Shown here piece after piece: positions 1-62,086 of a DNA stretch of 64,000 nt. The translations under genes and the position numbers were made by a program. Source of the stretch: Octopus vulgaris (Eukaryota). The notes below the pieces were generated by a model, which saw only the letters and a list, made by a program, of their open reading frames with translations, was not told the DNA's origin and did not search any database. Each line of letters opens with the position of its first letter. Position 1 is the stretch's first letter. Where the stretch lies: positions 113,646,001 through 113,710,000 of the forward strand of contig OX597820.1 of NCBI GenBank assembly GCA_951406725.2, written 5' to 3'.

Positions 1-162
1 GGGGGAGAGAGAAATGTGTATACTTACACGTATACTTATTTACATTCATACATGCATATATATATATATATATATATAGTTAATCCAAACATGAAAGCAC
101 AAAAAAACACAACAACGCGAGGACGTGGAACAAATATAGTAATTATAGTATTATTATAGTAT

Positions 163-5086: not shown

Positions 5087-5090
5087 CTCT

Positions 5091-5285
5091 ATTGAAAAAC
5101 AGCAAAAATATATCATAAAAGATATTACTCAGAGTTTCACGTTCCTGTTCGTCGGAACGTGAAGCTCTGAGTAACAGTTTTTGTGATATATATTTTTGGT
5201 GCTTTTCAATAAAGCATATTACTCTACCTCTGGTATTCGAGTACTATTTTTTCCAACTTGTTTCCCATTTATGTGCTTACTCCGG
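5091..5285. mobile_element. Collapsed fold-back of hammerhead-bearing PLE-like terminal repeats
   Basis: ttactcagagtttcacgttcc (5125-5145) / ggaacgtgaagctctgagtaa (5154-5174) inverted; tail 5211-5285 matches 49501-49572; (TA)n on both sides. Confidence 0.7.
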
Positions 5286-6993: not shown

Positions 6994-7651
6994 GAATTAG
7001 ATTACAATAGAAGAGTCACCTTTTCCTTTAATGCTTATCAGAACCATAACTGTTGTGAGGCGACGGAGGCGTGTGTTAGTGTTGTTGCTCACCGAAAGGT
7101 TAAGCCAGTTCCAGACGTCTCAGAGAGTTGCAGACAGATAAATATCTTAATATCTTTTGCATTCCTCCCAAACATATCTGAAGATATGGATATATATCAA
7201 CGAATTTTACGAATATACATAATGCAAGGAAAATAGTTATAAATGAGCCAATAACGTTGGGTGCAAATGAGAAGTGAGCCTTGAAAATGAGAAGGAAGTG
7301 TCTGAAAAGGTTATCTGAGTCAACCTCAATGGTTTTTTATTGTAGTTTCGTTAAAAGAAATTTTTAGTAACAGTTTCGCGTAGCTGTGTGTTAAAGAGTT
7401 TGCTTCCCAACCATATGGTTCCGGGTTCAACCCCCAACACATGGCATCCTTCACAAATGCCTTCTGCTATAACCCCGCGCCGACCAAAGCTTTTGGTGTG
7501 GATTTGATCGACGGAACCGAAAGAAGCCGTCATATATATATATATATGCCTGTTTTGGTATCCCACCATCACTTTCCATCCGGTGTTGGTTTGTTCACGC
7601 CTCGAAGCAAGGTGAATAAAATCAAAATAAGCAACAGGATATCAAGTAGTG

Positions 7652-7739
7652 ATGCAGTACGACCGTTTCAAGCGAATCCATTTAACTGAACAACGCAATC
7701 AATACATCAATTTAAATGGCGTGCCATCATCAGCTGCAC
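7652..7739 (-). ncRNA. Type I hammerhead ribozyme motif
   Basis: Reverse strand: gugcag CUGAUGA [long stem II] GAAA cggucg UA cugcau; stem I is 6 bp with one G-U pair. Confidence 0.75.
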
Positions 7740-7906
7740 AAATAAGTAAATAGAATTTTAACCAGTTGGACACACTAATATAATTTTTCTCAAATACTTT
7801 AAGAGAGCAAGAAGATGGAAGAAATTCATGTTGTCGCTATTGTAGCTAAGAATAGACTACAATCGCATGAATATGTCCAACTGATTTAAATTCTATTTAT
7901 TTATTT

Positions 7907-7994
7907 ATGCAGCTGATGATGGCACGCCATTTAAATTGATGTATTGATTGCGTTGTTCAGTTAAATGGATTCGCTTGAAACGGTCGTACTGCAT
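7907..7994 (+). ncRNA. Type I hammerhead ribozyme motif
   Basis: augcag CUGAUGA(7913-7919) ...ccauuu/aaaugg stem II... GAAA(7977-7980) cggucg UA cugcau; perfect 6-bp stem I; predicted GUA cleavage after 7988. Confidence 0.8.
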
Positions 7995-8045
7995 CACTAC
8001 TTGATATCCTGTTGCTTATTTTGATTTTATTCACCTTGCTTATAT

Positions 8046-18774: not shown

Positions 18775-19517
18775 GTTTTCTAATTTTCTTATTTCTCATT
18801 TTTCCGATGGCCGATCGCTCGACTGTTCAGGAGCGAACTAAGATAGCAGCACGCTATGAAGTGTGGAATTTCGTTGCTTTGGTTCAGAGATGGTGGGCGT
18901 GCATGGAAAGGTAAGCATGCAACACTACGCCAGGGGACAATAAAAAGTTGTCATGCAAAGCTGATGACCACGGGCCGTCCAACCACATCCCGATCAGCGG
19001 AGGAAGTGGCAACAATGCAGGAAATGTTTAATCACAGCCCTCAAAAGTCGACACGTCAAACCGCTCGTGAAAGTGGACGAACAAGACATACAATACGTAC
19101 GGTGTTGCATCCATTTTCGTCCATGGAAACCATTATTCCATGCAGGAGCTAAAACCTGAAGAATGTGACTGCAAAACTCTAAGAAGTCTAGATCTCACTT
19201 CATGTGACTTTTATCTGTGGGGTTACACAAAAGAGAAGGTATACAAGACAAAACCTCGCACACTGGAGGACTTGGAGATACAGATTCAGGAGATTCTCAA
19301 TGATATCCCAGACAACGTCCTTCAGAAGGTTGTTCATTCTATCCCTGGCCCTTTGAGGAAACTGGTTGACCCCACCGGTGCTTAAGTTGCAATAGGAAGA
19401 TTTACTTTCATTTTCCCAAATAATAAAGAACATGTTTCATTTGTTTCAATAAATTTGTAAAAGGAATATGGATTTTATAACCAATTTTTAATGCCTACTT
19501 ACTTTTCACCCACCCTG
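18775..19517 (+). mobile_element. Internally deleted Tc1/mariner-superfamily transposon
   Basis: ATG at 18807 MADRSTVQERTKIAARYEVW; GRPTTSRS...SPQKSTRQTARE HTH region; RSLDLTSCDFYLWGYTKEKVY motif; 3' end caccctg followed by TA. Confidence 0.88.
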
Positions 19518-20101
19518 TATATATAGAAAAGGTTGACAGTGACTTCGAAGTTCTAACTTACTTGCCGTCATAAGAGAGACTAATTACAAGTAAGCCAAAT
19601 ATTTCCTACTCTACTGAAAAGTATTGAGTGCTTCATTTTAGTGTTCGGCTATTTTACATATCTTTCCATGAAAACAAGCATTAACAGATAGACTAACATT
19701 ACGCACACACACATACATATTGATAAAAAAAATTACACAGACAGACAGACAGGCAGGCAGGCAGTCGGATGGGCGGAGAGGCCAGCAGACGGACAGACAG
19801 GCAGACAGACAGATAGATATACTAACTATATTTTAGAATCGAGACAATGTACAAATGCATCATCGCAGACTATTTCATTTGTTACAATATTCTAAACAAA
19901 GGAGTTCATAATGTGTGCATACAATTATGCATCCATATATACATGTAAACAACAGAATTTATATCAGTATATATATAATTAAATATCTATTAAAACTACT
20001 TCAGACATTGTCAAACGTCTGGAGTAGTTTTGTTAGATATCAGATTTAATATCTATTGATACAGACTGTATTGTTTCCAATTTATTTAAATATATAATTG
20101 T

Positions 20102-20199: not shown

Positions 20200-20229
20200 A
20201 TACGTATACACACATACACACATCTGAGT

Positions 20230-20341
20230 GCACAGGTGCAATACAAAGTGAAGAAAATAGTACTCGAATACCAAAGGTAGAGCTAAATATTGTGTTTTAT
20301 TGAAGTTAAAAATCTTAAAATATTACTCCAAGTTTCACGTA
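20230..20341 (-). mobile_element. Truncated copy of the 5.2/49.5 kb hammerhead-associated repeat
   Basis: Reverse strand acgtGAAActtggagTA followed by ctctacctttggtattcgagtactatttt; only the 3' half of the hammerhead is left. Confidence 0.6.
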
Positions 20342-20847
20342 TCCAACAAGTTCAGACCGATGGATGGATTGATGGATTGATGGATGGAGAGAGGGAGGGA
20401 GGGAGGGGTTAGAGATAGAAAGAGATACAGATAGACTCCTACACCGTTACACACCCACACACTTCATTATTGTAATGCATTGTCTCAATTCTTGCTGCCA
20501 CGAATGCCATTGATAGTAAGCTAATATTGTGTCCAAATCTATTCGAGATATGTCACCTCTTCGCTTAGCCTCACAAACACTATAAGCCCTTTGAAAGCGT
20601 TCTCTTCTGGTAAGGTTTATTATCTTATGTACGTACTTATGTCTATAATTTGCATGAATGCGTATGCCTGATATAATAATTTATGCAATGGAATTAGATA
20701 AATGTGTTTATAAATATGCTGTCATGTGTATATGAACGATCTGTATAAAGAAACCAAAGCAATGTTCTAAGTTGAAATTTGTTTTTCAACCATGAATATA
20801 TCTTTGTTATAACTACATGCACACACACACATCTATATATATGTATA

Positions 20848-28604: not shown

Positions 28605-28691
28605 ATCAGCTTCAGTACAGAACTAGCACTTTATTTACCGATTCCGAAAGAGAAATTGGTAAAACTGGCCTCGGGGGTATTTGAACTCAGA

Positions 28692-29109
28692 TAAGGCGGC
28701 GAGCTGGCAGAAACGTTAGCACGCCGGACGAAATGCGTAGCCGTATTTCGTCTGCCGTTACGTTCTGAGTTCAAATTCCGCCAAGGTCGACTTTGCCTTT
28801 CATCCTTTCGGGGTCGATAAATTAAGTACCAGTTATGCACTGGGGTCGATATAATCGACTTAATCCGTTTGTCTGTCCTTGTTTGTCCCCTCTGTGTTTA
28901 GCCCCTTGTAGGTAGTAAAGAAATAGGTATTTCGTCTGTCGTTACGTTCTGAGTTCAAATTCTGCCGAGGTCGACTTTGCCTTTCATCCTTTCGGGGTCG
29001 ATAAATTAAGTACCAGTTTCGCACTGGAGTCGATGTAATCGACTTAATCCCTTTCTCTGTCCTTGTTTGTCCCCTCTATGTTTAGCCCCTTGTGGGTAGT
29101 AAAGAAATA
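28692..29109 (+). mobile_element. SINE family A with duplicated 3' portion and 16-bp TSD
   Basis: TSD ggtatttgaactcaga at 28676-28691 and 29110-29125; second body starts near 28926. Confidence 0.9.
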
Positions 29110-32041: not shown

Positions 32042-34569
32042 TATATACATATACACATATATTATATATCTGTTATACATATATATGTATGTATGCATGT
32101 ATTAGGCATATATGTATTATATATATTATATACATACATAGTATGTATGTATGCATGTATGTATGTTATGTATGTATGCATGTATGTATGTATGTTATGT
32201 ATGTATGCATGCATGTATGTATGTATGTATGTATGTATGTATGTATGTATGTATGTATGTATGAAAATATGATCAATAAACCGCAAAGCTTTTAGTTTTC
32301 TTAATTTTCCCTTCGGCTATCATTTTCCTTAATTTCATTTTTTAACATTGTTTCTTAAGTTTCATTTTAAGTAACGGAAAACAAATTATAAATTGTTCGA
32401 TAAGTGCAGCTATTAATCCCTACAAGCGCCAAAAAAATAATATAATAAAACGGTACAAGCAACAATTTCAAAATATGTAACTTAGAAATTAATCATTCGA
32501 ATATACTCTGTTACTTCCAGTGAGGTCTGTCATGAGCCCTAGGATTCATAAGGTCGGGGCTGGAGGTATCGGTCCGTCGTAGGGTTAACTTCCCAGTTAT
32601 TGCTGGAACTCACAGCTGGGTGGAGTGGAACAACACGAAATGAAATGTTTTGCTCAAGAGCACAACGCACCATCCGTTTTCAGAATCGAAACCGTGATGT
32701 TATGATCGTATGAGCAACATTCTAAACACTAGGCCAAATGCCTTCAACTGAGAGAAAAACTGATTTGGCACATGACAAATTTCAAAGTACTCTGATATGA
32801 TTTTGCAACTAAAACCAAAGCATTATATTAATGCCAGTCTTATGAGCGTAGTATCATTGCTTCAATATATCAAGCTTAAATACAACGAAACGGCTAAACT
32901 TGAAAGAAACATTTATTATAAGTTACTTTGGCGGAATAATGAATTGCAATCATTTCGTAGTTATTTTTAAAAATAATATTAATGATTGTAAAATGACTTC
33001 CAAATTAAAGCTTCTTCGTACTAACACTGATCAGAAGTGGTGATCACTGTTCATTTTGAGGACGATTTGATTAATGATAATAGGAAACAGAAATATTAGT
33101 AGATGAATGAAATGCTGTCAGTGCTGTGAAAATACTTGCGATGGCTGTAATATATATTTTAGAAAGGCATACAATGAAGTCATCTCTACATATCTTGATC
33201 TGATAGAGTGACGTAATGCTGACAGTATTGCGAAAGTTAAACTTTATAGCAAAGTTGGTACCAGTGCCATGGTTGGAATGAACAATGGCATATAAAACTT
33301 AGAGCTGAATTCATTCGGTTATTTTAATTAGATGTTGATGCCATTCAATTTGGTTAGCAATAGTTTCTCTTGATTCTACTTGGCTGTCTATCAATTTCTT
33401 ATAGGAGAAACTCGCAAATGGCTTATTAAAAAAAAATCTATATCAGGTAATTAATGATAGAGAAAAGTCATTAACAATTCCTATAAACTGCAAAACCAGA
33501 TAGTTATCTATCGAAGCAGCTATGGGAAGAATAATATCACCAATGGCTGGATTTGCGACTGATTTTACACTGATGAGGAAACACAGTATAGTGCTGTGTT
33601 ACCGAAATATTTTAAGAAATGGATTCAGAAGAAAATATTTTGGTGTATTTCTTGTTTATACATCGCATTCTTCATGAAGTACATAAATGATTTGAGTCGA
33701 AGTCTACTGACTTTTAGATAATTAAGATGTAATAATTTAGATAATCTAAAACATTAGATACTTAATTTATGGTGGGGAAGCACACAGACAAACGAAAATC
33801 CAAACAATAACATTTTTTGTGTGAGTGTGTTGACCAAAGTTTTGGACCTGATGTAGAGATTTTTTGAATCCGAAAATAACATCGATTTATTACCACCACA
33901 TAAAGATTTAAGATAGTTGATCCACAGAATACTCGTTTATTGGACTGAACGAATAGAACAGATTCTGAGTTTTTCTTGGAGTGAAGTTTACCAACGTAAA
34001 GGTTCTTCTGAGTACAGTTCCTATAAATAATTGTACTACTTCAACTACTTCTTAATTTCAGTGAAGAGGTTGAAAGAATGCTTAATGAGATAAATAATGT
34101 TAAATCAAAGTGAAGAAAGAAGATAAAACTGAACCTTCTTAATGCTATTTTATGTAGAATTAATGTTGCTGTAATTTTGAACTCTCAAAGCTTTGCAAGA
34201 TGTAGAAAAAAATGTCACCTTTATATTAATACAAATACAGAAAGATACCTAGAAACTCCAAATAACTGAGAACGCATTCATTCTGTTTTAATTATTGATG
34301 ATATACAGTAATATTATAAGTATGTTATGATACAGTTTTAAGCTAAATAAGTTTTTGTTATCCTTCTTATGAAAATAACGTGGTTTTCCTTGAAAACAGC
34401 TATGTATTAATTTATGATAATTCTTTTAAGAAAAGGCATTTATCATAGTTGTGATTCTCGTAAACTGGGTAATTTTAGCCCGCTAATTCTTGATGTAAAA
34501 CCTATGGAACTGAATTTTAATATGACAACACTAACATATCTTCACTCATCGAAAATAATAATAACAATA

Positions 34570-37022: not shown

Positions 37023-37099
37023 TAATAACAACATTGGACTCTAATTTAAACATTAGTCCTTAATTTAAGAACAAGACCAGCAAGTTTTAGCACTGAAAT

Positions 37100-37477
37100 T
37101 TCTCAATACCAACGACCCAAGTACTTGAATGTACCTGGAATTTTGATGGTGAGGCGTGTCGATTACATCGACCCCAGTATTCAACTGGTACTTATTTTAT
37201 CGACCCAGAAAAGATGAAAGGTAATGTCGGCTTCGTTGGCATTATATATATATATATATATATAATGCCGCACTGCGACACTGAACCCGAAACTACGTGG
37301 TTGACATGCAAGCTTCTTTATGCTCTGAGTTCAAATTCCAACGAAGCCGACATTACCTTTCATCTTTTCTGGGTCGATAAAATAAGTACCAGATGAATAC
37401 TGGGGTCGATGTAATCGACACGCCTCACCATCAAAATTCCAGGTACATTCAAGTATTTGGGTCGTTGGTATTGAGAA
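37100..37477. repeat. 140-bp inverted duplication
   Basis: Arms 37100-37239 and 37338-37477, 2 mismatches by eye; internal palindrome ggcatt(at)n aatgcc at 37238-37269. Confidence 0.9.
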
Positions 37478-37629
37478 CTTGGAAGCTCCCTTCCAATTTC
37501 TTATGCCAGCTGCGGTACTAGCATTGAGAGTGAACGTGTGTGTGTGTGTGTGTTTGTGTGTGTGTTGAGTGTACATTTTTATCTACAGGAACTCAACTGA
37601 TTTTTGTTGATCTTTTCTTTCAAATCACC

Positions 37630-39254: not shown

Positions 39255-40349
39255 ATGTGAATGCGGTTTTCTTGCGGACGTAAAGTGTTCTAAAAACACA
39301 ATATATATCGGAGGGAGACGAAAAATCATTTCGGCAGCAGCTAGAATGAACGCCAAATGCATTTCTTGAACTTTATCAATAGCATGTGCTGACAGCTAAC
39401 TACATGCTTAAAAGAGATTTGTCGTCATCGATATAGAAAACAGTTTAATAATAATTTCCTGTATATGCAATTGAAGCAGTAGCAGTGAATGCATTACTCC
39501 CTGTTTTCTATACTGAGGGTAACGAATCTCGTCTAGTCACGTGGCTAACTCATTTAAACAGAGCAGACTGGGGCAGTAGAAAATAAGATCCTTGCTAAAG
39601 GATACAATATGCCGTTTGTTTCAGGAGTTGAAACCACAGCCTTAAGATTATATATATATATATATTCAAATAATTACAAATACGGAGACAGGTATTTCAT
39701 CATTTTTTTTTCTTTTAATTTTACAGTTTGTCATACAGCATATTTATTTGATTACATTAACCGACATGTGTTTCTGCCGCATAAAGTATGTTCGCTGTGA
39801 ACCGTGCTTACTGAAGGACCCTGAATTAAAGTGCACAGAAAATTATGCTGGGTTGCATGTATATCTGCACACACCCTGTGCAGCAGAAACACGTGTCGGT
39901 CATTGTAACCAAATAACTATACTGTATGATTAGCTGTAAAATTAAAAGTACTAAAGTCGATGTAATCTACTATTCCCCTGCCTCAAAATGTCAGGCTTTG
40001 TGTCTTGTAAAAAGGATTTTTTTCTTCTTCTTTCGATATTGTTTCCATTTCTTGTCCTGTGTCTTCCCGACACCTAGGGTAAAGAAACTCACTGTATACA
40101 TTGATAGACCATTAAAATAAACACACCAGATTGTTCATTTACAAAGCCAAGTTATGTCAAAGAAAAAAAAAAGAAGAAAGAGAAAAGTAAAGGAAAAAGA
40201 AAATAAAGGAATTTTTTTTTATGGAATTTTACATGGACTGTAATCATACAGTAACAATGCTCTTCCCAATACGCATAACATATCAGTTAAAACAATCTTT
40301 TGCACTTCTTGCACGGATGCTAAGCCAGGGATCATCCTCAAATAATTTT

Positions 40350-40998: not shown

Positions 40999-42127
40999 AG
41001 CCTCCTTCAGCTGCAAGTCACCCAGTCCAGATGTTTTTATAGTTCTCTTATTCCATCCACCATAAACACCTCCTCTCCCAATTTTCTATATAATATAATA
41101 AATATATTTCCTTCCCCCGCTAGAACGTCACCCGCCATTACCTAAACGCTCACTACTACCAGGAAAGCGTTTACTAGCCCCATCCCGCCTCGACCACCCC
41201 TACCAACATAAATTTCAACAGTTTCTCTAACCTATTAATCAGTGCCATCAACAGTGTTACTTGCCATCATCATCATCATCATCGTCATCATCACCATCAG
41301 TTCCATCATCAGTATCGTCACAAACATCATCTTAGTCATCACCCCTCATCACATCGTTATCAACATCACCAACGTCATTCTCGTTATTACTATCACCATC
41401 ATCATCATCATCGTTCCATCATCGCAATCACCATTATCTTTATCACCATTTCATCGTTATCATTAACACAATCAATATATTCATCATCATCATCATCATC
41501 ACGATTATTTTCTCCATCACTGTCATCGACATGTAAATTATTTTCATCCTTAATGAGATTATCGTCTCATCATCAGCCTCTTTCTCATCATCATCCTCAT
41601 CATCGTCACTATCATCATCAGCATCAGCATCATTATCATCATCACTATAATCATCTTCGTCGCCGTCGTCGCCGCCTTCGTCATCATCATCATCATCATC
41701 GTCATCTCCACACCCATTATCCTCCTTGGCACTTATAACCATAATGGCACCAAGTAAAACATTACCGAATTTATTCAAGGAGGCAGCTCCTACCATCAGC
41801 CAATGAGCAGCCCATACGTGGCCGCAGGAACAGTTAGATATAATAGCCAACTGTCCCTCAAAATACTACTTTATCATATTCAATAGTGGTGCACTGGTTA
41901 ATGTAGTCCGCGACAGACAATGCCTAAAAACGAGATGAATGCTTGGTCATGGCTTAAATATGTTATAATTATACACATGCTCGATCAGGGCCGATTGTAG
42001 GTTAGAAAACAACAACAACAACAACAACCTATAAATCTGGGCTGCTGCAATATCAGTATATAAGCGTGGGCCAATGTACTTAATGTTCTGAACCAACGAA
42101 ATGTATTTTTTAAAAATTAAAATTATA

Positions 42128-47174: not shown

Positions 47175-47580
47175 GGCGCAGGAGTGGCTGTGTGGTAAGT
47201 AGCTTGCTAACCAACCACATGGTTCCGGGTTCAGTCCCACTGCGTGGCATCTTGGGCAAGTGTCTTCTGCTTTAGCCCCGGGCCGACCAATGCCTTGTGA
47301 GTGGATTTGGTAGACGGAAACTGAAAGAAGCCTGTCGTATATATATATGTGTGTATGTGTGTGTGTTTGTGTGTTTGTGTTTGTCCCCCTAGCATTGCTT
47401 GACAACCGATGCTGGTGTGTTTACATCCCCGTCACTTAGCGGTTCGGCAAAAGAGACCGATAGAATAAGTACTGGGCTTACAAAGAATAAGTCCCGGGGT
47501 CGATTTGCTCGACTAAAGGCGGTGCTCCAGCATGGCCGCAGTCAAATGACTGAAACAAATAAAAGAGTAAAAGAGTAAGA
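47175..47580 (+). mobile_element. SINE family B, full length
   Basis: ggcgcaggagtggctgtgtggtaag (A box) ... gggttcagtccc (B box) ... aaaagagtaaaagagt tail; inserted in (TACA)n. Confidence 0.93.
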
Positions 47581-47857
47581 GTATACGTACGTACGTACGT
47601 ACATGCATACATACATACATACATACATACATACATACATACATACATACATACATACATACATACATACATACATACATACATACATACATTATCCAGT
47701 GCCTCTCTTATTTTATGCTTTGATAATTGTTTTCTTGACGAAGCCATTCTCGAAACATGCAGGTCATGTTGTAAGGAAACGATGAATTAAACCTACCTAC
47801 TCTATGTTTAGCACTCAGCTCTTCTTAAATTGTAAATTACTTGAATCGGAATGTGTA

Positions 47858-48589: not shown

Positions 48590-49090
48590 CTTTCGCTGTT
48601 TACAGCAGGGCTTAGAAGGAAGCTGTGTAGCGTGATCGCCGCAGTGAACATAACGGAGAAAGTTGAGTTTTGCCAAAAGCTTGGCGATACATGTTCAGTT
48701 GCCTACGCAAAGTTTTCAAAAAGTTTTCATTGTTCTCGACACAATCAACGAGATCTTGTGCAACTGAAACCCGAGTGTCTTTTTGGTCCGCTGAAAACAC
48801 TTTTGGCACAAACTTGGCAGACACGTGTCTCATACCCAAATCTTCAGTGATAAAGGACTGAACTGAACCATAACTAATCTTCTTCACATCCTCTGATAAT
48901 TCAGGGATGGGAATTCGACGCTTTCCCCTCACAGCTCTATGCACATCTGCGATGTTTTCTCAGTTCTGCTGGTTGCGGGTCTCACAGAACGTTCGTCGCG
49001 ATCGACATTTTTTCGGCCATCTTGGAGAAGTCTGAAACACTCGTACCCTTGTGTGCGGCTCATACACTCCTCCTCATACACTTTCGTTTT
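48590..49090 (-). mobile_element. Mariner transposase N-terminal remnant, internally rearranged
   Basis: Minus strand KVYEEECMSRTQGYECF ... ISYGSVQSFITEDLGMRHVSAKFVPKVFSADQKDTRV; plus strand VEFCQKLGDTCSVAYAK. Confidence 0.85.
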
Positions 49091-49190
49091 CAGAACATTT
49101 ATATTCACAGCCTTGAATTTATCTCATTCTGTTAATTTATATATATATATATATATATATATACTTTATTTTAAGCAGCAGAAAATTCAA

Positions 49191-49240
49191 CAAAATCTGT
49201 TACTCTGAGTTTCTCGTTGCCGTTCATCAGACAGTTTTTG
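49191..49240 (-). ncRNA. Minimal type I hammerhead ribozyme motif
   Basis: Reverse strand: aaaacugu CUGAUGA acg-gcaa-cga GAAA cucagag UA acagauuuu; GNRA-capped stem II, palindromic stem III. Confidence 0.75.
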
Positions 49241-49430
49241 CTAGAATGGAACATATATATTAATTCAATCTATACTCTTACAAACGCTACACCTTTAAAA
49301 AGAAATGGAGACCTTTTTGTTTATCGCTCGAAGATTGACCGTTTTTTCTAAAGGGCCAATCAAACAAGTCCATTTCTTTTTAAAGGTGTTAGCGTAAGAG
49401 TATATTGAATATATATATGTTCCATTCTAG

Positions 49431-49477
49431 CAAAACTGTCTGATGAACGGCAACGAGAAACTAGAGTACAGATTTTG
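49431..49477 (+). ncRNA. Minimal type I hammerhead ribozyme motif (two 1-nt deletions relative to partner)
   Basis: aaaacugu CUGAUGA acggcaacga GAAA cuagag UA cagauuuug. Confidence 0.6.
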
Positions 49478-49569
49478 TTGAATTTTCTGCTGCTTAAAAT
49501 AAAGCATATTACTCTACCACTGGTATTTGAGTACTCTTTTTTCCACCTTGTTTCACATTTATGTGTTTA

Positions 49570-49636
<67 letters not shown>

Positions 49637-49799
49637 TTTTTACTTATTATATTATATCTAGCATTCATTTTATACTTTTTGAGAAAAAAAAAATATATAT
49701 TATATATTATATTAATTATATATATATTATTTGTTATTTATGTATTGGTTTATGTCTATCACTGTTTGAGTTGCATAATAGTGGTTTTATCTCTAATTC

Positions 49800-49878
<79 letters not shown>

Positions 49879-49885
49879 ATATATA

Positions 49886-50095
49886 CTCTTTTACTCTTTT
49901 ATTTGTTTCAGTCATTTGACTGCGGCCATGCTGGAGCACCGCCTTTAGTCGAACAAATCGACCCCGGGACTTATTCATTGTAAGCCCAGTACTTATTCTA
50001 TCGGTCTCTTTTTGCCGAACCGCTAAGTGACGGGGACGTAAACACACCAGCATCGGTTGTCAAGCAATGCTAGGGGGACAAACACAGACACACAA

Positions 50096-50151
<56 letters not shown>

Positions 50152-50296
50152 CAGGCTTCTTTCAGTTTCCGTCTACCAAATCCACTCACAAGGCATTGGT
50201 CGGCCCGGGGCTATAGCAGAAGACACTTGCCCAAGGTGCCACGCAGTGGGACTGAACCCAGAGCCATGAGGTTGGTTAGCAAGCTACTTACCACAC

Positions 50297-50297
<1 letters not shown>
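49886..50297 (-). mobile_element. SINE family B
   Basis: Near-identical reverse complement of 47175-47580, lacking the extreme 5' end. Confidence 0.9.
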
Positions 50298-57356: not shown

Positions 57357-57451
57357 GTATACCGCAGCTTTTTTCTCTAGAAGCTTATACAGCTTGTTTT
57401 GAAAAATTGCCTTAAATCTGTTGAGGAATCTGCCCCGCAGAAGAATTTAAT

Positions 57452-59529
57452 ATGGATGCCTACAGTATCGATTATTCTATGAAAAACATACCTATACCAT
57501 TCAGGTAACTATACTCTAAGAAACTTTTGGAGAAAATTACAGATCTTATTAAGCGTATGAGATGGAAAGCCTTCTTTTACAACATGGAAGAGGCTACTAC
57601 AGAGAACATATTTGATGAAATTTAATCAAAGAAATTCCTTCCTAAAATCAAGGACTTAGAAGACTTTGAAACGGACCTACTGAAGTTTATAAACAAAATA
57701 AATTTCGTCTTTTAACACTTTCCAACAGAAATTGGAACATGACATCAAATACATAAGAAGTTCCAAAAAAACGGGGGTTTTTTTCTGATAAAACCAAGAA
57801 CTTATACCTTGTGGAAAACAGCACATACTCACGACTTCTACATAACAACACTATTAATAATTACACTAAAGCTAGACCACAAGTTTATAACAATATTACT
57901 AAAGAAGCTAGCATCATCGCCGCTAGGCTTAAATTAGATTTTAAAAAATAGAGGTCCTCCCCAAAAAAGAGGCCTTTATAACTATTAAAGACCAGAAGAA
58001 GAACTTCCTATCTAATCCTAAATGTAGACTTATTAACCCAGCAAAATCAGAAATTGGTATTATTAGTAAAGAAATTTTAGGAAAAATCAATACTAAAGTC
58101 AGAAATGCTACTAGGTTAGTACAATGGTCTAATAGTATAGAAGTCGTTGATTGGTTAAAGCCATTAGGAATAAGAATAAAACGAGATTTACGCAATTCGA
58201 CATTGTTGATTTCTATGCTTCTATCTCTAAGGAACTGCTCGATAAAGCCCTCGCCTTCACAAGCGAATTTAAAGAAATTAGTACACAAGATAAGAACATA
58301 ATCTGCCATGCTAGAAAGACTACGGATACAGAAAGTGCTTTCTATGTGAGCATGGGGTCCTATGATGGAGCAGGCATATGCGATCTCATTGGACTATTCC
58401 TACTCGATACATTGGGTAAAACTTTTCCTGGTATATATTTTGCCGTTTACAAAGATGATGCTCTAGCTTTAACCACAAACACCAATGGACCAGCGCAAGA
58501 TCGGTTTGGGAAGGACATTATCCAAATGGTGAAAACATTCGATCTTAGCATAACAATAAATACCAACCTGAAGGTTGCCAATTTTCTAGATGTATCTTTA
58601 GATTTAAATAAAAATACTTACAAACTCTATAGAACGCCCAACGATAGACTTAGCTATATTAATGTAGGTTCCTGCCACCACCACCCCCCATAGAAAGTTA
58701 AGAATTTAGTTAAAAACATTAGCAAGAGAATTTCTAGCTTCTCTTCCAATATAAACATTTTTAATAGTGTTTCCCCAATATACAAGAAAGCTCTAAAAGA
58801 TACTGGTTTTAGCGAGGAAATAACCTAAACACCTGTCCTTAGTCCAGTAACAAAGAAAAGGAAAAATAGGAATATAAAAATTATCTGGTTCACACCCCTT
58901 ACTCCTCGAAGTGACCTTTAATATAGGTAGATATTTCTTATCCCTTATAGATAGACATTTTCCAATCAATCATAATTATAGAAAGCTCTTTAATAGGCAC
59001 AACTTAAAAATTAGTTTTAGTTCTACTACTAACTTAAAAAATATAATTACACACAACAAACAAGAACAACAAAATGGAGCTGGCTGTTCCTGCAGAGTTA
59101 AACATTTGTGCCCGCTAAATGGAGCTTGTATGAATGATGCCATCATTTAAGAAGCCATCGTAGACTCTACAACCACTAAGGACATAGTTTCGTGAAAGAA
59201 ATATGTAGATATCATCACGGAAATTTTAAAGCCAGGTTCAACAATTACACTTTAAGCTTCAGACACTGGGATAAAATGAAAACAACCAAATTATCCAGTT
59301 ATATATGGCCCTTAAAAGAAAAAGGTGTCACTGGAAGATCTTGGCCAAGCGTAAGCCTTACACCAACGGCAGTGGAAAGTGCGGTCTTTGCTATATGGAA
59401 AGATGGCTTATCTGGAAAAGTTCTTTAGACCCCGCTACATGTCTAAATTCAAGAACTGAACTTTTTGGGTCATGTCCACATTTGGCAAAACATTTGTTAC
59501 ATTTTTGGGACCCCCAAGATCCCAGATAG
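57452..59529 (+). mobile_element. Near full-length decayed Penelope-like element ORF (RT + C-terminal GIY-YIG)
   Basis: YSMKNIPIP...KRMRWKAFF; FDIVDFYASIS; SMGSYDGAGICDLIG; YKDDAL; NFLDV; CSCRVKHLCPLNGAC; FKARFNN...SF; TKLSSYIW; CGLCYME...LNSRTE...CPH; multiple stops and frameshifts. Confidence 0.9.
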
Positions 59530-59995: not shown

Positions 59996-60909
59996 GACAG
60001 TAGTTTTTGTGATGTTGGCAGCGGCGGCGGCGGCGGCGGTGGTTTGTGGTGATAATGGTGTCTGTGGCAAGCGCGTATGATCCAGATTTGATTTGGATAG
60101 TATTATGATGGTGATTTTAAAATAGTAATATTATCAAAATTCTCCCATAATACATACATCGTGAAGTCATATCATACTCCAGGGGTGTGTTGAACCCCTG
60201 GGTAAGATAGTGCCCAGATATATCGTAAAAACAGTTTTATGCTCAGTCGAATAACAAATATCACTTTAGATTTAAAATTCTATGATGTGGATTGCTTTGC
60301 ATTCCTCAATGCATATGGGAACGTTATCTACTGCTATGGATATACACACAGTAATACAAGTGTATGGACACACGCGCGCACATATAGACAGACATATATA
60401 TTATACATATATATTATATATGCATGTATATATACATGTCTGTATCACAATCAAGATGCAGAAATTACGTACTCCGAATGAATAAGGTAATGTAATCTGA
60501 TGGTAGAAAGAATTCCGCGAATTAGGTACTCCAAAACCAGTCGGAAGTTCGGTGAGGCGGGGGGGGGGTCCATGTGAGCGGGCAGTAAATAGTTGATAAA
60601 AAAAAAAAACGAAGAAAAAAGACAAGAAAAAGCAACAACACGGAGACATGGTAGAGGCAAAGTATTCCTCAGGGAAGGAAAAAAAAGAGGTTTTTACGAT
60701 TCGAGCAAAGCACTTTGTGGATTGCTGCGATTTTTTCTTCCGTCTTCCTTTTCTCTTGGACTTTCCTCTGACTCCTCTTTCTGAAGAAGAGCCTTGCTCG
60801 AAACGTAAAACACCCTTTCTTTCCCTCCCTGAGCGTTTTATTAACACTTTACACCTACCACGTCCTCACATTGTTGTTTTTTCTTGTTTTTTTATTAATG
60901 ATATATGTA

Positions 60910-61232: not shown

Positions 61233-61465
61233 TCTATATATATACACACACACACATATATATGTGTGTGTATACATAATATTTTATTTTATTTTATATT
61301 GAGGAGTGTATGTAACCGAAATAGAGAGACACTCATAAATCAATGTTTATGTGCATACATTTGAAATAGTGTATACACATATTCAGATAAACATCAAGAG
61401 ATTTTTATCTGAATATACTCATCTCCGCAACATGCACAATTTATCTCAAATCTCCTACGTTTCTG

Positions 61466-61516
61466 ATATCTGATGAGAAGGACGCGTGTATGCGGCCACG
61501 AAACTTAAAGTTATAT
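61466..61516 (+). ncRNA. Solo type I hammerhead motif
   Basis: auau CUGAUGA gaaggacgcguguaugcggccac GAAA cuuaaag UU auau; 4-bp stem I, palindromic stem III, GUU triplet. Confidence 0.55.
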
Positions 61517-62086
61517 GGAGCTCAGCCAAACTGCTATTAAAAATATATATATTTAGCTCCTAGAAAAATGCTTTGAGTGCCAGTTTCTTTCGTTTGTCCA
61601 CTCACCCGTACACACACACACACATGTATTACATATCTATATGTGTGTGTATGTGTGTGCGTGCATGAATATATATATTATACATACATATATGGTGATG
61701 ATACTAACGGTGCTCCAGCATGGCCACAGCCTTTGGACTGAAACAAAAGAATAAAAAATGTACATATAACTATATATATATATATGAATATATATGTATG
61801 GATGGATGTATGTATGTATCTAAGTATCTATGTACGCAAGCTTGTATAGGCAGGTAAGTAGATACATTATATATTTATATGTTGGGTGGAATTTCAATGC
61901 TAACTTTCGCGTTCCTCTGCCAATCAGTGTATTTCAACCCGATATCTTCGCAATTGTGCAAGTTTGATACTTCTAACCGAATAAAATAAATTTGCTAGCC
62001 TCCCACATACTCTCCGTCTGGCTGAGACTTTGGCGAAACATGAGATATGAAGGTCCGAGAAAAATGTTTATATAAAACAGTCTATA

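Follow-up and report, generated by a model that had tools for sequence, protein, structure and literature searches.

According to the accessible parts of the published accounts, PLE insertions often carry an inverted, 5'-truncated copy together with a one-sided tail of 30-40 bp (PMC8557442), and head-to-head is the commonest form taken by such inverted copies (PMC3846280). The Hydra clade of PLEs is marked by an RT with RWK and DKT motifs, a CxCX5C linker and an EN lacking CCHH, and its families insert into (TA)n, a target that among PLEs is not exclusive to Hydra (PMC8557442). The min-HHR hammerheads of metazoan PLEs have a palindromic helix III and show no activity as monomers and weak activity as dimers; dual motifs lying 100-700 bp apart on opposite strands have mostly been attributed to truncated PLEs (PMC4209133). 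For Poseidon PAc of Anolis, it has been shown in vitro that the protein cuts and extends both strands, uses two RNA start sites that bound the tail, and assists its hammerhead (PMC11167929). Head-to-head 5'-truncated PLE copies, one-sided tails, (TA)n targeting and opposite-strand hammerheads are all, then, already published, and the locus described here is in itself ordinary transposon debris of a published type. Two fold-backs that have one short end in common bear on how PLE inverted copies and their tails arise.

We analysed a window of 64,000 nucleotides of Octopus vulgaris DNA (contig OX597820.1), an AT-rich, microsatellite-dense stretch of animal DNA with an interspersed SINE that presumably resembles an octopus family. 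At 49.2 kb this window contains a real fold-back with outward-pointing arms. The initial annotation had placed a twin-hammerhead fold-back at 49161..49572, and both the inverted arms and the opposite-strand cores were recovered: the arms (49159-49322 against 49358-49509) are identical in 148 of 166 columns, the local inverted-repeat score is 224 where the highest among shuffled sequences is 28, and the whole 412 nt folds with a minimum free energy (MFE) of -216 kcal/mol (z -27.9), a stability equalled by none of 100 shuffles. Read from the left, the sequence runs from a (TA)13 target microsatellite (49138..49163) into the left arm (49164..49309, minus strand, cleanly aligned), which is an inverted, tail-less copy of the 3' end of the element, and then through a spacer that separates the two 5'-truncation points (49310..49368), of which 35 nt are clearly unique and the remainder is loosely alignable. 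The right arm follows (49369..49504, plus strand, cleanly aligned), with the same sequence as the left, an intact core and a ribozyme two bases short. It alone carries a 67-nt tail (49505..49571, plus strand), which lies outside the palindrome and is followed by a (TA)29 target microsatellite (49572..49629). The CUGAUGA...GAAA cores, at 49230-49210 (minus) and 49440-49460 (plus), face outward on opposite strands, and each hammerhead sits within a putative pLTR close to the 3' end of the element. Two end points can be defined with respect to the core: site 1, the base at which the left arm stops, is 67 nt from the core start, and site 2, where the tail ends, is 132 nt from it.

This unit consists of head-to-head short copies of a single hammerhead-bearing sequence in (TA)n, which we consider probably to be the 5'-truncated 3' ends (pseudo-LTRs, here pLTRs) of a Hydra-clade PLE and likely the product of one insertion event. 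The PLE origin suggested initially is thereby supported and, through the ribozyme, the architecture and the target, narrowed to a likely Hydra-clade family; the clade assignment rests on RNA features, and the unit resembles in its workings, and by those features probably is, a truncated Hydra-clade PLE insertion. A six-frame translation of its interior contained no Pfam family, tblastn with 14 RT homologues gave no match in 48900-49800, and no parent ORF for the family was found within the window. A TATA-like box (49253..49259, minus strand), which may serve as a pLTR promoter, lies 22 nt upstream of the left core and is mirrored in the right arm (49410-49418, plus strand). The chance of such a box outside microsatellites is 2.3%, and by eye comparable boxes occur 27-32 nt upstream in three published Hydra consensi (PMC8557442). 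Since each core has a TATA-like box upstream, short outward transcripts from these boxes are possible. Helix I might begin with a 3' splice site, as it does in Drosophila Penelope, but with a chance rate of 6% of positions such a site is no more than a weak lead.

The surroundings of the unit hold other repeats. Adjoining the left target (TA)n, 48615-49135 (minus strand) is what we take to be a mariner-like transposase fragment, for which no Pfam match was obtained. Just past the right (TA)n, 49630-49652 (plus strand) bears a short resemblance to the final 18 nt of the tail and is either a relic of an older insertion or an assembly stutter. Two long SINE copies (47189-47657 and 49804-50297), inverted and 85-94% complementary, bracket the element at a distance of ~2.1-2.7 kb from each other.

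The left arm carries a complete type I hammerhead (49188..49243, minus strand; core 49230-49210, helix III 49210-49202, predicted cleavage between 49201 and 49200), with the CUGANGA...GAAA core and a U-H cleavage site. Its helix I consists of 4 bp, a bulge and then ~7 further bp, its stem II has the 2 bp and GCAA cap described in the initial annotation, and its helix III is the palindrome ACUC-A-GAGU, with a 1-nt centre, followed by an A. With this 4-bp palindromic helix III and 1-nt loop the ribozyme qualifies, as judged from its sequence, as a Hydra-type hammerhead. An A.A mismatch flanks stem II in both arms and the R10.1-Y11.1 closing pair is absent; because the stem II flank is likewise unpaired in 15 of 26 rows of the Hydra table, where it is usually U.U (PMC8557442), the A.A separates the left arm from canonical ribozymes and not from Hydra-type ones. 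A descriptor combining the core and stem II with a palindromic helix III, the U-H site and four helix I base pairs matched three times in the 64-kb window (7733-, 7913+ and 49230-), compared with 0.06 matches per shuffle over 100 shuffles. Rfam at E<=10 reported no hammerhead family for the 49.2-kb fold-back (10 matches) or for the fold-back at 7.6 kb, nor did one appear in the 150 matches listed out of 308 for the whole window; the Rfam matches shown were miRNA-like hairpins that score under their own gathering scores, and they were discarded.

Dimeric folding had been expected at the outset on the ground that helix III cannot close on a 1-nt loop, and folding predictions lend this in silico support. 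Helices I and II form in the monomer and helix III in the homodimer only: the probability of helix III in the monomer is 0.0004, while the homodimer MFE structure is a double hammerhead at -26.2 kcal/mol, against -24.0 for two monomers, with an intermolecular helix III probability of ~0.3 in the dimer ensemble. The stability of the isolated ribozyme is ordinary (z -1.3). As the cores lie on opposite strands, the ribozymes of the two arms cannot dimerise with each other, and the functional dimer is predicted to be formed by two sense RNAs rather than by the two arms of the fold-back. The ribozyme is also predicted to be silent in any read-through RNA, which would fold into a long double-stranded hairpin of ~135 bp that buries the sense ribozyme. 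Cleavage would probably take place only as a dimer of two sense copies, whether in a tandem parent RNA or in trans, and would probably be weak, given a stem II of 2 bp and its A.A mismatch.

The differences between the arms, described initially as mostly small indels, proved to be indels throughout: over the clean arms the right differs from the left by no substitution, six deletions (11 nt) and one insertion, a count that excludes two extra gaps at the beginning of the global alignment, where its first three columns do not align. As assembled, the right arm lacks one base of helix III and one of the cleavage site, so that it fails the descriptor, and the MFE structure of its dimer differs from the active fold. 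The initial annotation had left undecided whether such differences reflect decay or consensus error, and the pattern leans to error. Six other inverted repeats in the window have accumulated 65 substitutions and 10 indel events (this reference omits two low-scoring repeats, which show 15 substitutions and no indel), and the excess of indels in the 49.2-kb arms (7:0 against 10:65) has a Fisher p of 5e-6; the 6:1 bias of deletions over insertions is not significant alone. Because seven indels without a substitution contrast with repeats in which substitutions dominate, we think it quite probable that the right-arm indels were introduced by the sequencing consensus and that the palindrome is very young, its real arms being almost the same. 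Nanopore sequencing is known to miss bases in inverted duplicates (PMC7229812, in its accessible part), and it may not be the technology used for this assembly; a 73-nt poly(A) within a (TA)n tract elsewhere in the window also speaks for error.

The indels could instead be genuine, slippage or error-prone palindrome repair having destroyed the plus-strand ribozyme and left one working hammerhead. In keeping with this, other palindromes in the assembly are free of indels, including the inverted repeats at 7.6 and 37.1 kb, so that hairpin error is not general in the assembly, and several of the right-arm deletions fall in short repeats or homopolymers, where slippage acts too. Genuine change would, however, have to account for seven indels and no substitution, all within the paired part and none in the adjoining tail, in a window where natural divergence is dominated by substitutions; the unpaired tail differs from that of the 5.1-kb copy described below by six substitutions and no indel, and at both ribozyme indels all three related arms agree with the left arm. 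We regard genuine damage as rather unlikely. Ribozyme screens of long-read assemblies may thus call young palindromic copies decayed where the damage is one of basecalling.

Two relatives of the element were found in the window by blastn, one at 5156-5281 (81.7% over 126 nt, E 8e-27), the other a fragment at 20243-20282. Both outscore 300 of 300 shuffles against the tail-bearing arm, and the tail motif has three matches in the window with 0 expected; profile searches of the window gave no extra family copy at E<0.1, and no tandem copy was found in it. The 5.1-kb copy (5087..5285) is a second fold-back in (TA)n, made up of a left arm (5087-5153, minus), a right arm (5154-5214, plus) and a tail (5215-5285), whereas the third copy (20225..20345, minus strand) is older and single-armed, with the 3' half of the ribozyme and the tail hairpin. 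The left arms of the two fold-backs terminate at the identical base, site 1. Their apices differ, that of the 5.1-kb copy lying inside the ribozyme core and that of the 49.2-kb unit ~80 nt upstream of the core, and the 8-nt spacer of the 5.1-kb copy reads as family sense within the tail-less arm. (TA)n lies on both flanks of both, as for Hydra, and a one-sided tail is present in 2/2 family fold-backs, although at 67-71 nt it is longer than the 30-40 bp that is typical; the 71-nt tail at 5.1 kb is identical to the 49.2-kb tail at 61 of 67 positions, with no indel.

The initial annotation would have been overturned by a family consensus without the ribozyme core. As far as the relatives reach, this did not occur: the related arms, three in all at the 5.1- and 20.3-kb loci, preserve the core in its 3' half (one of them reads GAAG instead of GAAA) and the 9-nt helix III, the helix III centre being variable. 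In its 5' half their core is truncated or changed, and at the stem II flank they have U where the 49.2-kb copy has A. The family tail motif had 0 matches in prokaryotic genomes, where no RT relative was found either. A full-text literature search for the family motif gave no match, and the accessible supplement of the Octopus vulgaris repeat paper (PMC13282606) holds neither a repeat library nor the motif. Six longer family motifs are absent from the accessible supplement of Craig et al. (PMC8557442), in which a single 9-mer match lies at the 5' end of an unrelated consensus and was rejected.

Of the nine local inverted repeats detected in the window, five (at 5.1, 7.6, 39.7, 49.2 and 60.6 kb) show outward hammerhead 3' halves on inspection by eye. 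The fold-back at 7605-8041, with which the 49.2-kb unit was initially compared, keeps its two ribozymes intact and has a stem II region of 56 nt, four substitutions and no indel between its arms, and a left flank that is SINE-like rather than (TA)n. That the two are unrelated in sequence was confirmed, with scores of 16-20 equalled by 83-264 of 300 shuffles in all six comparisons; a U-rich 17-nt stretch near the 3' ends, seemingly common to both, is at chance level (173/300 shuffles) and was dismissed. The sameness of geometry that had been claimed holds for the inverted arms with outward cores and not for the ends, since the 7.6-kb element has no visible tail and no (TA)n directly at its left end; the two geometries are alike and not identical. 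At 39694-39966 lies a decayed fold-back with outward hammerhead 3' halves, 17 substitutions and no indel, with (TA)n ~30 nt to its left. The fold-back at 60612-60896 is older and of another family, having a core at 60781 (plus), a minimal helix III and an end in (TA)n, and 37-128 (minus strand) is a 3' end related to it. Inverted SINE-like pairs without hammerheads occur at 37097-37480 and 28613-28842, the former with 97% identity over 146 nt and (TA)n in its spacer.

Other traces of PLEs are scattered through the window. The largest, at 57449-59517 (plus strand), is a decayed, frameshifted Hydra-clade PLE with an RT and a GIY-YIG-type C-terminus. It matches RVT_1 at E 6e-4, under the curated cut-off, is hit in tblastn by its homologues at values down to 1e-92, contains RWK and CxCX5C motifs and, by eye, DKT near 57790, and by eye is closest to Hydra-1_Obim of Octopus bimaculoides among the consensi accessible in PMC8557442. 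No hammerhead was seen after it, and blastn against the 49.2-kb family gave no match, so we do not link it to the family as a parent, though its presence in the window speaks for the Hydra-clade reading. A Hydra-type hammerhead at 61470-61580 (plus strand) has a 4-bp palindromic helix III with a 1-nt centre and a degenerate tail hairpin at 61556, with a 38-nt palindrome nearby (61379-61416). At 33570-33620 (plus strand) there is a hammerhead core with a long stem II; before it runs a decayed frame that resembles a PLE C-terminus, and after it comes a small palindrome (33736-33767). The stretch at 19510-19640 (plus strand) combines a TATA-like box with an 8-bp stem that resembles helix I and encloses a decayed interior, and at 19608 it has a perfect hairpin of the tail type, closed by a GAAA loop; it probably represents an old, related pLTR. 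The 73-nt poly(A) set within a (TA)n tract (1875-1947) is likely a basecalling artefact.

The tail hairpin, an apparently conserved feature, is the main extra interest of an otherwise known insertion type. It is a bulged hairpin (49510..49533, plus strand) with an outer stem, a 4-bp inner stem, a 3-nt loop and a 3-nt bulge, beginning 6 nt past the short-arm end and, counted by the left arm, 74 nt after the core start. Seven core pairs are invariant in 3/3 family copies and the loop and bulge vary; since these pairs never vary and covariation is nil, the three family tails alone do not prove the hairpin, and the stability of the isolated tail is ordinary (z -0.9). A hairpin descriptor allowing no mismatch found five sites in the window, compared with 1.1 expected, and none of 100 shuffles reached five, although three of these sites are the family copies used to write the descriptor. 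The fourth, at 19608, has a change on both sides of the inner stem, and the fifth, at 41808, is without visible PLE context. With one or two mismatches allowed the counts are near background (11 against 6.7 and 22 against 16.3), as is, taken alone, a two-mismatch hairpin 86 nt after the Hydra-type core at 61470. Among six published Hydra consensi inspected by eye (accessible part of PMC8557442), an equivalent bulged hairpin with other paired letters lies 76, 77 and 86 nt after the core start in Hydra-2_Amil, Hydra-2_Ajap and Hydra-1_Crog, respectively, with one outer mismatch in Hydra-1_Crog; the remaining three stop 79-93 nt after the core start without a hairpin, as if cut at site 1. We found no prior description of this hairpin in the accessible literature searched, Repbase and subscription papers aside. 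As a decidedly tentative proposal, Hydra-clade PLEs may share an undescribed bulged hairpin ~75-85 nt downstream of the hammerhead core, its pairing conserved from coral, sea cucumber and copepod to octopus, that could act as an RT landing pad fixing two start sites, one just 5' and one ~70 nt further on. A protein dimer might prime both target strands from these, mini fold-backs being direct records of twin-primed insertion, and each arm might also carry an outward-firing TATA promoter that frees the hammerhead from the hairpin. The hairpin in any case offers a defined RNA element for mutation in vitro.

For the insertion itself, we infer that priming at both sites gave rise to two cDNAs, which were truncated and joined. 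The RT/GIY-YIG protein of the element would bind its own RNA at the tail hairpin and nick both strands of the (TA)n, one cDNA being primed at site 2, the tail end, and the other at site 1, immediately upstream of the hairpin; each cDNA would stop early and the two 5'-truncated ends would be joined, with the ribozyme travelling as a passenger of the pLTR. What points to two cDNAs is mainly the fixed short end together with the spacer of the 5.1-kb copy, which belongs to the tail-less arm, as two cDNAs explain and a simple fold-back of a tail-bearing cDNA does not. Self-priming, in which one truncated cDNA, or an antisense template (Arkhipova et al. 2013, PMC3846280), folded back and copied itself, is the reading published for head-to-head PLE junctions in the accessible text of the same paper, and the lack of any substitution between the arms is as expected if one arm templated the other. 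Against it stand the unpaired spacer at 5.1 kb, in a tail-less arm that cannot template a tail, and the match between the fixed short end and the second RT start site (PMC11167929, accessible part). We judge self-priming unlikely, yet as a later apex deletion could mimic the single 8-nt spacer it stays a rival.

Two further accounts seem far less probable than either of these. A short non-autonomous palindrome, MITE-like or retrozyme-like, might move in one piece, its RNA being processed by its two ribozymes, which would suit the lack of coding sequence, the three family loci in 64 kb, and the terminal inverted repeats with TA flanks. The apex nevertheless varies between copies while the 3' ends are fixed, the pattern that 5' truncation leaves; there is a copy with a single arm, and the ends lack symmetry. 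Retrozymes, moreover, are described in the accessible text as head-to-tail tandems (bioRxiv 10.64898/2026.07.22.740005), and opposite-strand cores cannot act in one RNA; such a palindrome is therefore very improbable. That the inverted arm is an assembly or library chimera derived from a fold-back read, as error-like indels in one arm and signs of basecall failure elsewhere in the window might suggest, is more improbable still: the short arm has exactly the end point seen in the 5.1-kb fold-back, which is older and diverged, the sequences outside the (TA)n are unrelated, a unique spacer is present, and the outward-hammerhead layout recurs in 5/9 local inverted repeats of the window. End positions and spacer ownership provide a cheap genome-wide test of how PLE fold-backs form.

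Among described systems, the Hydra-clade PLEs in the accessible part of PMC8557442 come closest. Hydra-2_aMil shares with the left arm the helix I start, the core, the helix III arms and the cleavage base, further close ribozymes are those of Hydra-2_aJap, Penelope-3_HM and Penelope-13_HM, and the published Hydra-1_Obim ribozyme differs. In the Hydra table of that paper, 17 of 26 rows have, like the left arm, a 4-bp helix III with a 1-nt loop, and five have its ACUC/GAGU arms, whereas stem II has 3-7 bp in every row and 2 bp at 49.2 kb. Penelope-13_HM (PMC8557442) likewise combines an inverted, 5'-truncated copy with hammerheads on both strands. The 49.2-kb unit is set apart by having no ORF and a sequence outside the accessible consensus set of Craig et al. 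(PMC8557442). The min-HHRs (PMC4209133, accessible part) resemble its ribozyme in a palindromic helix III that predicts dimeric cleavage and in their opposite-strand pairs, but their consensus has a long helix II with a conserved G10.1-C11.1, where helix II here is minimal with A.A (A-U in related copies). Poseidon PAc (PMC11167929, accessible part) is reminiscent of the unit in the two ends that bound the tail, the AT-rich target and a stem-loop at the start region; it belongs to another clade, its tail is 30-40 nt rather than 67-71 nt, its ORF starts inside its ribozyme, whereas the ATG within the 49.2-kb core opens just 17 codons, and the hairpin here, unlike the PAc stem-loop, is situated between the two ends and lacks an AC-rich composition. 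Non-LTR retrozymes (bioRxiv 10.64898/2026.07.22.740005, accessible part) are, like the 49.2-kb unit, non-coding and PLE-related with a type I hammerhead, but they form head-to-tail tandems or solo monomers, whereas the octopus unit is a head-to-head palindrome with a variable apex.
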